From Escherichia phage FL33: 64,000 bases of DNA. The stretch's first letter is position 1, and every line of letters begins with the position of its first letter. A program made the translations under genes and the position numbers. The notes under the pieces were generated by a model, which did no database searches, was not told the origin of the DNA, and saw only the letters and a program-made list of their open reading frames with translations. Below are positions 435-7,642 of this stretch, in pieces. The stretch lies in the sequence record PP400788; one strand, given 5' to 3'.

Positions 435-965
<531 letters not shown>

Positions 966-1421
966 TTAAAAGAGGCTGTTCATTATTCGGTAAAGTGAAG
1001 GACCCATCACATATTGCCACTGAGTACGAGGAATAAGAGCAAAAGCATCCATCTCTGGAATCATAACGCCATCTTTATTTTCAAAATAAGACTCGCAATG
1101 GCAATTTCTAAACATCTCATGCTCTACTGGAATCGTATAATAAAATAACTGTAAGTCTTTATTACTAGAATATTTAAATACACCTAGGTCTTCTAGAAGG
1201 TCTGGATTATAATTGCTAAAACCGGTCTCTTCTAAGCATTCTCTTTTTGCAGCTTCCAGTGCATTCAAATCAGAACTTTCTACACGTCCCTTTGGAATAT
1301 CCCAGCGATGTGCCATCATTCCAGGCTTACGAGAACCAGTAACCCGACCCATAAATAAATCTTTATCTTCTGTCATGAAGATAATACCAGCTGATAATGT
1401 TTTCATTTTAATTTCCTGCAT
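966..1421 (-). CDS. nudE: Nudix hydrolase
   Basis: 151 aa; Nudix box visible (GRVESSDLNALEAAKRECLEETGF); position immediately upstream of e as in T4; alternative start at 1406. Confidence 0.85.
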   Translation of the reverse strand: MQEIKMKTLSAGIIFMTEDKDLFMGRVTGSRKPGMMAHRWDIPKGRVESSDLNALEAAKRECLEETGFSNYNPDLLEDLGVFKYSSNKDLQLFYYTIPVEHEMFRNCHCESYFENKDGVMIPEMDAFALIPRTQWQYVMGPSLYRIMNSLF

Positions 1422-1801
1422 TCAGTGATAAAGTTATTTAAATTTTGAGCATATTTCTTTTCATCAAAAATCTTTTGTTGTCTGCGTAAACGCCATGGCA
1501 TTTCAATGAACATACGCCATATTCCTGATAATACTGCTGCTGTAAAAATATTAACAAGTATAGTTAAAAGAACCCAATCTCCTATTCTGTCCATTGGATT
1601 TTTTATAAAAAAGTAAAATACGAACGATGATATAGGAAGACTAATAATATACCACAGAATCATAATCTTATCTGTGAACCAATCAGCGTTCGTTAACTTA
1701 GCGCGACCATTATAAATACACACGAATTTATCATCTGTTGCAGTAGATGGCTTAGCTGCTTGATATCCCATTCTAAACTCCCTAATCAGCAAATTTTTCA
1801 T
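1403..1801 (-). CDS. Small 2-TM membrane protein with basic C-terminal tail (paralog family member 1)
   Basis: 132 aa; two hydrophobic helices (ILWYIISLPISSFVFYFFI, WVLLTILVNIFTAAVLSGIW); C-terminal ...FITECRKLK; start ATG overlaps stop of an upstream micro-ORF (ATGA). Confidence 0.6.
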   Translation of the reverse strand: MKNLLIREFRMGYQAAKPSTATDDKFVCIYNGRAKLTNADWFTDKIMILWYIISLPISSFVFYFFIKNPMDRIGDWVLLTILVNIFTAAVLSGIWRMFIEMPWRLRRQQKIFDEKKYAQNLNNFITECRKLK

Positions 1802-1886
1802 ATCTTCGGAACAGCCATTCCAGTCAACTCTATCAACTGAAATGCCATCATCCCATCATCTAAATCATACCAGCGAGTTTTTAAAA

Positions 1887-2249
1887 TCATCTGATTTTCC
1901 TACAATCACTCACAAACTCTTTCATTGATTCATTTTCAATATAAGACATGTAGTTATTATATTCTTTTAACTGTATTTTGTAATCCTTTTTTCTTTGCCA
2001 ATTTATTTTAAAATTATCATAATGAAAATATAGTATAGTACCAAAGAATGAAAATAATGAAATCGCTATAGTATAACGAAGTTCGCTCCAAACCTCTGTT
2101 ATAATTGCTGAACTATCGACGTTTAAAATAAAACAGTCAATCATTAGTCCAATAAGACTACCCGCAAGAGCTGCAAATACTGATACGGCAAGAATTAATA
2201 GTGCCTCAAGAAACGAATATTTGACTTTATTTAGTTTTGGCTTTTGCAT
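1887..2249 (-). CDS. Small 2-TM membrane protein (paralog family member 2)
   Basis: 120 aa; two TM helices; C-terminal ...EFVSDCRKIR; stop overlaps downstream start (ATGA). Confidence 0.6.
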   Translation of the reverse strand: MQKPKLNKVKYSFLEALLILAVSVFAALAGSLIGLMIDCFILNVDSSAIITEVWSELRYTIAISLFSFFGTILYFHYDNFKINWQRKKDYKIQLKEYNNYMSYIENESMKEFVSDCRKIR

Positions 2250-2611
2250 CGTGATTCCTTAACAAATTTCATAATTTCGTTAAATTCATACATATCTAGT
2301 TTAAGCTGGTGTTCCTTTTTAATCTTTTTACACTGAGCTTTCCATTCACGTACGCGTTTACGATAATGCCTTCCTTGATACCAGTATCCTACCCAATTTA
2401 CAGGTACTAATAAAAGTGGAACTATTAATGGAAGAATTAGCATTAACACAAGTATTTCGCCAGAATCAATATCAGTCATAACATCTAAAACACCTCCAAT
2501 AATCAATAGAATGAGTATAACAGGACCTATTAACACATCAGTAGAAATTATCTGACGCTTTAATTCATACTTCAACGGTTTACTTGGAAGGTATAGTGAT
2601 GGCTTTGACAT
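2231..2611 (-). CDS. Small 2-TM membrane protein (paralog family member 3)
   Basis: Start taken at ATG 2611 (MSKPSLYLPSK; AAGGAA SD upstream) rather than the track start 2632; two TM helices; C-terminal ...FVKESRCKSQN. Confidence 0.55.
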   Translation of the reverse strand: MSKPSLYLPSKPLKYELKRQIISTDVLIGPVILILLIIGGVLDVMTDIDSGEILVLMLILPLIVPLLLVPVNWVGYWYQGRHYRKRVREWKAQCKKIKKEHQLKLDMYEFNEIMKFVKESRCKSQN

Positions 2612-3188
2612 ATTCTCTACATTCCTTAACAAATTTTTCTAGTAATAAATCACTTTCAAAATTGGGATTTTCTACAAATTTATCAAAAAGATCATCAACA
2701 ATAGTTAAGATATTCTTTTTACTAAGAATACGTTTATTTTCATGCTTCGTTTCAGAATCAACTATAAGAGTAAAGAAATATTTCTTGCCCTGAAATTTTA
2801 CAGTAGTATCAATATAAAATAAATTTGACTTTTGTAAATTACGTTTAAACCATGCGTCACTTAAACTATAAACGCCAAGATAATCATAATCGTCGTTTAA
2901 ATAACAAACTGTCCATTCAGGAGAAATGAAATCAGTAAATTCAACGTCAAAATCGCATGTTAATAAATGAATTGATTCAATACTGTTAATAAGTATTCCA
3001 GGACGTATTAAAGACTTTTTACCTCTAGAAAATCTTCCAGAAAGACTTTCATCAGTTTCATATGAAGAACCCCAATAATAATTACGTCCTTCTGCCATAC
3101 GTTTAAGAGCATTTAGTAATTGGTCTGGAACATCAACCCGTCTTTGGAACTCTTCAAACATTGAATTGAAATCACTTTGCATTTTCAT
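2580..3188 (-). CDS. Hypothetical protein (202 aa), soluble, shares C-terminal FVKECR motif with downstream membrane paralogs
   Basis: ATG at 3188 with GGAG SD (rc of 3195-3205); C-terminal region overlaps start of next gene. Confidence 0.6.
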   Translation of the reverse strand: MKMQSDFNSMFEEFQRRVDVPDQLLNALKRMAEGRNYYWGSSYETDESLSGRFSRGKKSLIRPGILINSIESIHLLTCDFDVEFTDFISPEWTVCYLNDDYDYLGVYSLSDAWFKRNLQKSNLFYIDTTVKFQGKKYFFTLIVDSETKHENKRILSKKNILTIVDDLFDKFVENPNFESDLLLEKFVKECREYVKAITIPSK

Positions 3189-3209
3189 TCCTATTTACTC
3201 CAAGTAATA

Positions 3210-3224
3210 GGGGCCGAAGCCCCT
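3210..3224 (-). other. Intergenic GC stem-loop (GGGGCCGAAGCCCC)
   Basis: Perfect 5-bp GC stem with GAA-type loop between stop of 3230..3823 gene and SD of the 2580..3188 gene; not followed by a clear T-run. Confidence 0.4.
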
Positions 3225-3229
3225 TATCA

Positions 3230-3823
3230 TTATTTCAGAGAATTAATATATTCCTGGACATCGGCAGAGGTAGTTTCAACCCCAGAAATATTGCCGTTAA
3301 AAGTTTCAACTCGAGCAAGGGTATCTTCAATATCAACCTTAGTCAGTGCTGCAATTTCAACTACATCATCGGCAGTACTAATTCCAAGGGCATTCGCTGC
3401 ACGAGTTTCACGGATATATTCCAATTTAACCGCAAGTTCTTGACGAGCATCATCTAACTCAACTACTTTCTTGGCGATTTCAATTCGCATTTCAGCATAA
3501 CCGTCAGCCTTAGTAGTCAACTGCTCAGCTGTTCGACGATATAGTAAACCGAGTTTAGCATGCATTGTTACATCTTGGCCTTCGGAAAGAAGTTTACGAA
3601 TTTCACGCTCTTTTGATTCGGCCTGTCGATTCTTTTCGATAACAAGTTCACGAATACGTTTTTCTTCGTTAATAGATTTAACAGAAGCAGTTTTTAGATC
3701 TTTAATTTTATCAAGTAGTTTTGCTGCTGCAGCAGTATACTGTTCTTCGACAGATAGATTTTTAGCCATAGCAGAACCAAGTTTAGTGCGAATAAACTCA
3801 ACAATTTTCTTCAGTGTGTTCAT
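3230..3823 (-). CDS. Coiled-coil protein, possible PspA/IM30 (phage-shock protein A)-like
   Basis: 197 aa, heptad-rich charged sequence; segments [27 protein letters not shown] and [12 protein letters not shown] resemble E. coli PspA from memory; AAGGAA SD upstream of ATG 3823. Confidence 0.45.
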
Positions 3824-3866
3824 AGTATTTCCTTAGGTTAATTGAGATTTAAAATCCATGAGAGTA

Positions 3867-4043
3867 TTATACTCCGGATAGTTTGTAAACTATTTCAACA
3901 TCGCCTTTTGCTGCTTTATAACCTTCAGCCCAAGATATAACCGACTTCTTATCTGAAGATTCAAATTCTGGCATTGGGCTTTCGCCAATGTTCACGCAGT
4001 ATGTTTCTTCATTTTCGTCGAACCAAATAATTAAAGTAGTCAT
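3867..4043 (-). CDS. Small hypothetical protein (58 aa), below the ORF-track size cutoff
   Basis: ATG at 4043 preceded by GGAGAAATAA; translation MTTLIIWFDENEETYCVNIGESPMPEFESSDKKSVISWAEGYKAAKGDVEIVYKLSGV; stop TAA at 3867-3869. Confidence 0.5.
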   Translation of the reverse strand: MTTLIIWFDENEETYCVNIGESPMPEFESSDKKSVISWAEGYKAAKGDVEIVYKLSGV

Positions 4044-7096: not shown

Positions 7097-7281
7097 TATT
7101 CACCTTTAGAAATTTTATCCGTAACAATAGCGATTAAACCAATTAAAAATGCTACTACAAGTGAAAACACATTTTCTGCTGTAGTTAATAATCCGCATAT
7201 AAATCCAACAAACATTGAAAAACTGAAAGCAGAAGCAGAAATTGCAATAGCAACATTTCGAATTAATTCACAACGTTTCAT
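7096..7281 (-). CDS. Small hydrophobic membrane protein (61 aa)
   Basis: Two hydrophobic segments; GAGGAGAATAAA SD upstream of ATG 7281; early promoter repeat immediately upstream. Confidence 0.55.
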   Translation of the reverse strand: MKRCELIRNVAIAISASAFSFSMFVGFICGLLTTAENVFSLVVAFLIGLIAIVTDKISKGE

Positions 7282-7304
7282 TTTATTCTCCTCAGTAGTT
7301 GATA

Positions 7305-7360
7305 GGGTAATAGTATCACAACTAAAACCCTATGTAAACAACTTTGTGAAAAATTTATTA
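7305..7360 (-). promoter_or_regulatory. T4-type early promoter (copy 2 of 3)
   Basis: Minus strand GTTTACAT (fwd gtaaac 7334-7339), 17-nt spacer, TACTAT (fwd tagtat 7311-7316); shares a ~22-nt core ATGTAAACA(A/G)(C/T)TTTGTGAAA with copies 1 and 3. Confidence 0.55.
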
Positions 7361-7642
7361 CAAAAGATTTTTAGCAATAATTTTAAGCTGAGCTACTGAA
7401 ATATGCTTGGCTTTAAACAAAGCAGTTTCTTCAGCAGGGGAGATAACGATTGTAGCACCATCTTTCTTAGCGGACCATCCATCACCCAGGTAAACAGTAC
7501 CTTTGACTTCTTCGCCATCAACCAGGCTAATCATCGGTTTACCTTCACGTCCTTTGTTTGCTTTAATAACTTCAGAAGTAAGGGTCGCTTCAGTCAAAGT
7601 AGAAGCATTAGTCGTTGAAGTGAATTCTTGATAAGTTTTCAT
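7358..7642 (-). CDS. Internal protein (head-packaged) with canonical capsid targeting sequence
   Basis: 94 aa beginning MKTYQEF (T4 IP capsid-targeting sequence) followed by LTE/TSE candidate gp21 cleavage sites; sits in the ipI position upstream of 57B. Confidence 0.75.
   Translation of the reverse strand: MKTYQEFTSTTNASTLTEATLTSEVIKANKGREGKPMISLVDGEEVKGTVYLGDGWSAKKDGATIVISPAEETALFKAKHISVAQLKIIAKNLL

Follow-up and report, generated by a model that had tools for sequence, protein, structure and literature searches.

Introduction

In phage T4, the genes e.6, e.5, e.4, e.3, e.2 and nudE stand in a row beside the lysozyme gene e, and four of them, e.2, e.3, e.4 and e.5 (UniProt P32273, P32274, P39222 and P39223; PHROGs 2203/35263, 2330, 2604 and 2607), are long-annotated open reading frames (ORFs) that carry descriptions such as ‘conserved hypothetical, predicted membrane protein’ and are uncharacterised. 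Here, we examine their orthologues in a 64,000-nucleotide stretch of DNA from Escherichia phage FL33 (sequence record PP400788; hereafter, the window), in which the products of four consecutive genes end in a common peptide box whose DNA also houses the ribosome binding site of the gene that follows. In T4, e.2 to e.6 and nudE all belong to the early class by RNA, and every one of the proteins has been detected, with e.4 and e.5 accumulating early, e.2, e.6 and nudE in the middle period, and e.3 late (PMC9697503 supplementary files 4 and 6). CRISPRi-ART knock-downs of T4 e.2 to e.6 were scored ‘Not Fit’, that is, with no fitness effect, and the same table gives their earlier essentiality status as unknown (PMC11879866 supplementary file 15); the text of a T4 transposon study does not mention e.2 to e.6. 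No main-text discussion of the function of e.2 to e.6 was found in the literature searched.

Classical translationally coupled cistrons overlap as ATGA and carry the Shine-Dalgarno (SD) sequence of the downstream gene inside the upstream gene, and the geometry is identical at all four junctions of the FL33 string; unlike in those cistrons, the SD-bearing segment here is also a conserved peptide motif on otherwise unrelated upstream genes. Among phage membrane proteins, T4 Imm is an 83-aa superinfection-immunity protein with two transmembrane (TM) segments. The predicted products of e.2, e.3 and e.4 resemble it as small, early, dispensable T-even inner-membrane proteins with two TM helices, but Imm does not carry the box, and e.2 to e.4 are, to our knowledge, not associated with any exclusion phenotype. 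The hyperplastic regions of T4-type phages further contain PeSL cassettes, which consist of an intergenic promoter and a terminator stem-loop (Arbiol et al. 2010, PMC2839356). The box junctions resemble these cassettes in being short repeats between non-essential early genes, where recombination deletes, inserts and swaps modules, and copies of the repeat flank the e.2 insertion or deletion that distinguishes related phages; they differ in lying within coding sequence and encoding a conserved peptide together with an SD, and in lacking a promoter or stable hairpin.

Results

A conserved C-terminal box in the e.5 to e.2 gene string

By DNA comparison, the 2 kb at positions 1300-3300 of the window are 100% identical to Escherichia phage FL34, 91-95% identical to ~500 Tequatrovirus records and 93% identical to T4. 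The phage is a Tequatrovirus, and what the region holds is the T4-type string of early genes e.5-e.4-e.3-e.2-nudE. Genes were named from the annotations of FL34, RB14, PP01 and T4, and all coordinates are positions in the window, where the string lies on the minus strand throughout:

2580-3188, minus strand: e.5, an ORF for a soluble 202-aa protein, the first cistron past the e.6/e.5 hairpin, ending in the box plus 10 residues
2231-2611, minus strand: e.4, a predicted 126-aa two-TM hairpin protein (PHROG 2604), overlapping e.5 by 32 nt
1887-2249, minus strand: e.3, a predicted 120-aa two-TM hairpin protein (PHROG 2330), overlapping e.4 by 19 nt
1403-1890, minus strand: e.2, frameshifted in this phage (DNA alignment with RB14 and T4)
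966-1406, minus strand: nudE, a Nudix hydrolase, the final cistron of the overlapping string (annotations of FL34, RB14 and T4)

Full-length matches were obtained to PHROG 2607 for e.5 (E 1.9e-109; precomputed Pfam PF26876), PHROG 2604 for e.4 (E 5.5e-66; precomputed Pfam PF26873), PHROG 2330 for e.3 (E 7.5e-56; 45 homologues, T4-like without exception) and PHROG 2203 for the intact e.2 protein (E 1.5e-78). The synteny of T4, e.6-e.5-e.4-e.3-e.2-nudE-e, is kept, the window proteins are 80-96% identical to those of T4 with hidden Markov model (HMM) matches along the full length, and annotated orthologues beside nudE and e are found in T4, RB14, PP01 and RB69; e.4 has 126 aa here, compared to 130 aa in T4.

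The ORFs with the C-termini FITECRKLK, FVSDCRKIR, FVKESRCKSQN and FVKECREYVK, as listed in an initial annotation of the sequence, are real on the minus strand. These C-termini belong to an amphipathic box of ~13 aa, [NE]xx[ILM]xxF[IV]x[ED]CR[KE], that stands C-terminally on e.5, e.4, e.3 and e.2, and outside of it e.5 and the three membrane proteins are unrelated in sequence. The boxes and the SD-like hexamers that accompany them are located as follows:

2613-2654, minus strand: box of e.5, SDLLLEKFVKECRE, conserved as NNLILEQFIMECRE in Mosigvirus
2622-2627, minus strand: AAGGAA, SD for e.4 (ATG at 2609-2611), in the K-E codons of e.5
2243-2281, minus strand: box variant of e.4, NEIMKFVKESRCK
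2255-2260, minus strand: AAGGAA, SD for e.3 (ATG at 2247-2249), in the e.4 box
1896-1934, minus strand: box of e.3, NESMKEFVSDCRK
1896-1901, minus strand: AGGAAA, SD for e.2 (ATG at 1888-1890), in the R-K codons of e.3
1412-1444, minus strand: box of e.2, NLNNFITECRK
1412-1417, minus strand: AGGAAA, SD for nudE (ATG at 1404-1406), in the R-K codons of e.2

The e.4 tail had been counted as equivalent to the others; its FVKE does align, but the Cys of ‘SRCK’ stems from the overlapping e.3 start codon. Among the window's six-frame ORFs there are three occurrences of the core F[IVL]..CR, all of them C-terminal in these genes, and no further C-terminal copy of the motif was found in ~186,000 six-frame residues (T4 1-72 kb and 125-169 kb plus the window), so the box motif is far beyond chance. 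In a leave-one-family-out test with HMMs of 29-aa tails, e.2 (E 0.011) and e.5 (E 0.0076) were the best non-training matches among 870 window ORFs.

The box is kept across four genera, Tequatrovirus, Mosigvirus, Dhakavirus and Gaprivervirus, on carrier proteins that, apart from the box, are 30-50% identical or unrelated. Mosigvirus tails read NNLILEQFIMECREYVK (e.5) and EEAMEFVKEIRCK (e.4) and, up to the stop codon, NETIENFIKECRK (e.3), EVERFITECRNLR (e.2) and TNLENFIKECRGK (RB69ORF133c, a further 101-aa two-TM protein), and the e.2 tail of Dhakavirus and Gaprivervirus reads LN(D/S)FI(E/K)ECRK, likewise followed by the stop. The initial annotation regarded the tails as sequence imposed by the SD, an explanation that does not hold for the peptide. 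Codons of the box vary synonymously between copies (Phe TTT/TTC, Cys TGT/TGC, Arg AGG/AGA/CGT/CGA) while F, C and R are invariant, and the SD falls on a different codon according to the copy: AAGGAA at K-E, GAGGAA at E-E, AGGAAA at R-K and GAGGAAAA at R-G-K. In Dhakavirus e.2 the C-R-K codons are a mere spacer between the SD and the start codon and are still kept. Given that the SD sits at shifting codons and C-R-K is retained as a spacer, the SD does not explain the box peptide, and the comparison of copies indicates that constraint acts on the box as a protein sequence, in which the SD is housed incidentally.

RB69ORF133c (7197-7502 in comparison locus L014; 4084-4389 in locus L019) ends in NLENFIKECRGK and is unrelated to e.2, e.3 and e.4; it has an early-type promoter of its own (TTTACA-17-TATAGT) and is restricted to ~150 Mosigvirus records. 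The end of RB69ORF135c, EYDIACREI, is a possible degenerate box. RB69ORF139c, 137c and 136c, three small soluble proteins in tandem that all end in GWV(S/A)SSxxC (5746-6541 in L019 of RB69; 3231-4025 in locus L006 of JS09), make up a second set in which conserved C-termini stand beside an SD. In TAAGGAA, the GGAA directly past the stop serves the next gene after 139c (JS09) and after 137c, and is not present after 136c; in RB69, 139c is split by a frameshift into 139c and 138c.

Overlapping cistrons and ribosome binding sites

SD-like hexamers sit within the upstream tails at all four junctions, 5-10 nt upstream of each ATG, as the initial annotation had noticed. The stop and start overlaps that it reported were also recovered, with 32 nt at e.5/e.4, 19 nt at e.4/e.3 and ATGA (4 nt) at both e.3/e.2 and e.2/nudE. 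Across the box copies compared, the SD of the next cistron is always in or just past the box, and the stop codons overlap or nearly abut the next start. The architecture expected of coupling is present (same strand, overlapping stops and starts, SD inside the upstream ORF), from which we infer translational coupling of the cistrons. Folding of the junction RNA, SD-sequestering hairpins included, was no better than that of shuffled sequences (fold z −0.3 to 0.9) and does not account for the conservation of the box, and a promoter and terminator scan gave no match at the four junctions and no excess of promoter-like sites in the string, with the e.6/e.5 hairpin alone standing out.

One apparent overlap has another origin. 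A 30-aa micro-ORF had been described upstream of the third membrane protein; alignment with RB14 and T4 identifies it as the N-terminal stub of a frameshifted e.2 and not a gene:

1852-1854, minus strand: GGG run, shorter by a 1-nt deletion than the GGGG found in RB14 and T4, the cause of the e.2 frameshift (DNA alignment)
1798-1890, minus strand: N-terminal stub of e.2, 30 codons, authentic for the first ~12 only
1403-1801, minus strand: remainder of e.2, 132 codons, read from internal Met31

The ATGA at 1798-1801 exists because the frame shifted in the G run ends there, overlapping the in-frame Met31. Intact e.2 of RB14 has 162 aa, with a conserved N-terminal domain of ~75 aa (W-x-x-L-D-D-G-D-x-G ... 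V-D-W ... M-G-Y), so that the short N-terminal region attributed to each membrane protein does not apply to intact e.2. T4 e.2 is split by a different pair of indels into ORFs of 102 and 63 aa, whereas the window phage has its own G-run deletion; the T4 pair (locus L005, 3470-3991) consists of the loss of one nucleotide from an A run and the gain of one nucleotide 78 nt further downstream. The 102-aa product of T4 e.2 was detected by proteomics nonetheless (PMC9697503 supplement). As a practical lesson, apparent micro-ORFs that overlap by ATGA can be frameshift debris.

In Dhakavirus and Gaprivervirus (loci L007, L008, L017 and L018, ~2408-3001), e.2 encodes 195-197 aa with an extra N-terminal extension of 31 residues. 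It is preceded there by a conserved 228-aa soluble protein (a homologue of RB69ORF132c) and followed by a 78-aa acidic protein and then nudE. The TM region of the VR5 protein is strongly unlike the others, and the N-terminal domain and box are conserved.

Membrane protein architecture and the question of paralogy

Hydropathy and charge analysis of seven orthologues located two hydrophobic segments in each of e.2, e.3 and e.4, and a strongly basic C-terminal region that starts near a Trp, both in agreement with the initial annotation. The loop between the segments is short and neutral or acidic in the seven orthologues. In e.4 the TM segments span residues 25-45 and 52-74, followed by the basic C-terminal region, and in e.3 ~14-42 and ~60-78, while no hydrophobic segment was found in e.5. 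By the positive-inside rule, e.4, e.3 and e.2 are predicted to be N-in/C-in hairpins with both ends cytoplasmic. Their common architecture thus comprises two TM helices, a basic juxtamembrane helix and the C-terminal box.

The proposal that the membrane proteins form a paralogous family finds no backing once the tails are set aside. Full-length Smith-Waterman comparisons against shuffled sequences gave z 4.3 for e.2-e.3 and z 2.4 for e.3-e.4; with tails masked, z fell to between −1.8 and 1.3 (−0.1 to 1.3 for the three membrane-protein pairs). Profile-profile comparison (hhalign, family alignments of 9 to 96 sequences with other genera included) aligned only the tails (e.2-e.3, 15 columns, P 1e-4; e.3-e.4, last 37 columns, P 0.006), and after trimming these the probability was <1% for every pair of family profiles. 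PHROGs, which clusters by remote homology, likewise places e.2, e.3 and e.4 in separate families. The shared architecture may or may not reflect an ancient duplication.

It is nonetheless conceivable, if unlikely, that e.2, e.3 and e.4 are true tandem-duplication paralogues with diverged bodies, and that their tails are alike mainly because each must encode the next SD. Such an origin would account for the common architecture and tandem arrangement, for the alignment of the last 37 residues of e.3 and e.4, and for the survival in nature of an in-frame e.4::e.2 fusion within the first TM helix (TM1). Further, e.3 and e.4 share an M-x-K-P-x-L start, and the e.5/e.4 and e.4/e.3 junction DNAs align across the start codon, but the shared start is dual-coded with the upstream tail and is therefore not independent evidence. 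Weighing more heavily are the loss of all similarity after tail masking, the separation in PHROGs, the presence of the box on the unrelated soluble e.5 and on RB69ORF133c, and the position of the SD at different codons between copies in which the peptide is kept through synonymous changes.

Rearrangement at the box junctions

The junction DNAs resemble one another in pairs, e.5/e.4 with e.4/e.3 (z 4.45) and e.3/e.2 with e.2/nudE (z 5.2). Phages without e.2 (PP01 and an IMG/VR contig, with the same layout in T2) have a hybrid junction, GAGTTTGTGAGTGATTGCAGGAAATTAAAATGAAAAC, in which the e.3 tail is joined to the end of the e.2 tail, and the loss of e.2 is an exact 485-nt cassette deletion with both endpoints in the TGYAGGAAA repeats of the e.3 and e.2 boxes. 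Between genera, variable segments start at boxes: in RB69, genes 139c to 132c lie between the e.3 box and e.2, and 130c lies between the e.2 box and nudE. Tequatrovirus e.3 ends in CRK(I/L)(K/R), an e.2-like ending with two additional codons, and Mosigvirus e.3 stops right after CRK, a difference that suggests conversion between the e.3/e.2 and e.2/nudE junctions. Judged from these alignments, the repeated box/SD/ATG DNA is a recombination substrate. Other rearrangements include an in-frame fusion of e.4 (residues 1-31) to e.2 within TM1 with loss of e.3 (UFV05 and UFV11), an e.4 without both TM helices and, on one contig, a split e.5. A similarity between the 5' ends of e.2 and nudE past the start codon (GCTGGTAT) lies in different reading frames and is inseparable from the tail signal, and was not built on.

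Such observations would also be expected if the box were a DNA element, a portable junction cassette of tail, SD and start codon spread by recombination in the manner of the PeSL cassettes, with the peptide a functionless passenger. The next gene's ribosome binding site invariably coincides with the box, and both ends of the e.2 deletion fall in boxes. The genus-specific segments have their left boundaries at the e.3 box (139c-132c) and the e.2 box (130c), the tails of e.3 and e.2 in Tequatrovirus are apparently homogenised, and PeSL-mediated modular shuffling, the nearest concept described, is documented in RB49 and phi1 (PMC2839356). We consider a passenger peptide improbable all the same: F, C and R do not change between copies with synonymous differences, including the Arg series CGT/CGA/AGA/AGG, the copies share as few as 10-12 of 21 nucleotides, a poor substrate for homologous recombination, and the box persists in Dhakavirus e.2, where it is only a spacer.

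Dispensability and rate of change

The expectation that the region is non-essential was borne out, with e.2 deleted in T2 and PP01, frameshifted in T4 and in the window phage, and fused to e.4 in UFV11, and with no fitness effect of the T4 knock-downs. Identities between Tequatrovirus and Mosigvirus are lowest for e.2 (33%) and e.3 (36%), followed by e.5 (47%), e.4 (52-56%), nudE (65%), e (82%) and e.6 (88%), and by these comparisons the membrane proteins are the fastest-evolving genes of the block. Within Tequatrovirus, e.3 and e.4 vary mostly in TM1, the loop and the second TM helix (0.3-1.0 bit); their cytoplasmic N-terminal and juxtamembrane parts are all but invariant (0.07-0.23 bit), and the box varies by 0.07-0.30 bit.

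Homology searches

Of the homology search that the initial annotation had proposed, orthologue families (PHROGs) were the yield, and no functional clue came from Pfam, NCBIfam, PADLOC or PDB sequence searches on e.2 to e.6, in which nothing rose above noise. A profile search with e.5 against 1.84 billion representatives returned 5 matches only, all of them T4-like fragments, and a scan of IMG/VR gave six loci; by these searches e.5 is an ORFan confined to Tequatrovirus and Mosigvirus. Its structure model is weak, with no trustworthy fold match. Comparison with membrane and lysis proteins of T4 (Imm, Sp, RI, RI.-1, NrdC.7, Ac, 55.8, RIII and Rz) and with the PADLOC models found no similarity to Imm, Sp, RI, RIII or any PADLOC model. 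An apparent likeness of e.4 to Imm and Sp (z 3.4-3.8; Imm 3.4) reflects hydrophobic composition and was gone in composition-corrected BLASTP, where e.4 and Imm gave no alignment at E ≤ 100. For e.6, a sequence match to PspA of the PspA/Vipp1/ESCRT-III superfamily, or to the PspA_IM30 profile, was looked for and not found, with no Pfam match, no PDB sequence match and an hhalign probability of 0.3% against E. coli PspA.

Some GenBank and RefSeq records label e.3 or e.4 ‘sulfurtransferase’, e.5 ‘phosphoserine phosphatase’ and e.6 ‘host specificity protein’; searches of Pfam, NCBIfam and PHROGs gave these names no backing. The features that flank the string are:

435-929, minus strand: e, lysozyme
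3210-3223, minus strand: hairpin GGGGCUUCGGCCCC between e.6 and e.5, which bounds the overlapping string on its upstream side
3230-3823, minus strand: e.6
3867-4043, minus strand: 58-aa ORF homologous to RB69ORF145c (PHROG 5461), in place of T4 e.7 (111 aa), a gene replacement within the same hyperplastic region

Discussion

We favour, with moderate confidence, a reading of the locus as a coupled string of dispensable, early, inner-membrane accessory proteins that carry a box for docking or oligomerisation and a variable part that meets a variable target. The box would form a common cytoplasmic docking or oligomerisation helix, the products of e.2 to e.5 would be dispensable accessory factors at the inner membrane early in infection, and the fast-changing part, made up of the TM helices and the periplasmic loop, would engage a variable target of the host or of a competitor, for example in the exclusion of a superinfecting phage or in counter-defence. 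Either of these specific roles is doubtful at best, and the functions in superinfection exclusion, lysis timing and anti-defence named in the initial annotation are guesses.

Several observations weigh against this reading. The box is short and its signal rests largely on position, and the cross-validated HMM that recovered e.2 and e.5 missed the Tequatrovirus e.3 and e.4 tails. The topology is drawn from hydropathy and the positive-inside rule only, with a second e.3 helix that is weakly hydrophobic, and the coupling is drawn from geometry only. Relaxed constraint, and not an arms race, could account for how variable the TM region is. In the stretches examined from Dhakavirus and Gaprivervirus, e.2 is the sole box protein, which makes an obligatory complex among box proteins unlikely.

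In a more specific proposal, which we regard as a long shot, the FIxECR box would be a portable cytoplasmic docking peptide that links changing, otherwise unrelated early proteins (the soluble e.5 and the fast-evolving hairpins e.4, e.3, e.2 and RB69ORF133c) to one partner at the cytoplasmic face of the inner membrane. Candidates for the partner would be a host factor or a protein of the phage itself, for instance that of the neighbouring coiled-coil gene e.6, and the box DNA would then have a triple role as peptide motif, as the ribosome binding site of the next gene and as a recombination joint for in-frame swaps of modules. A regulatory peptide, acting as a C-terminal degradation tag or as a nascent-chain element that would hold back the ribosome at the junction and favour re-initiation at the downstream gene, is very improbable. 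In its favour, the position of the box is fixed relative to the next start codon and not to its own stop, several copies end in basic residues (CRK, CRKLK and CRGK), a basic C-terminus resembles ClpX C-motif 2, and the T4 proteins encoded by the string differ in when they accumulate (early, middle or late). Against it, another 10 residues follow the box in e.5, which excludes a terminal tag in that protein, and no similar arrest-peptide signature is known.

Coupled overlapping cistrons and repeat-mediated modular shuffling are known themes; a box shared by at least five unrelated proteins, its obligatory overlap with a ribosome binding site and its use as a recombination joint were not found described in the literature searched. 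Taken alone, the e.2 to e.5 genes are ordinary cargo of a hyperplastic region. The box points to selection at the protein level in no fewer than five unrelated proteins from a single early region, and it marks natural breakpoints of gene loss. If the box is indeed a docking or assembly signal, one short peptide would open a block of T4 ‘dark matter’ to experiment, and a sequence in triple use, as protein, translation signal and recombination joint, would be shaping the exchange of accessory modules in phages.

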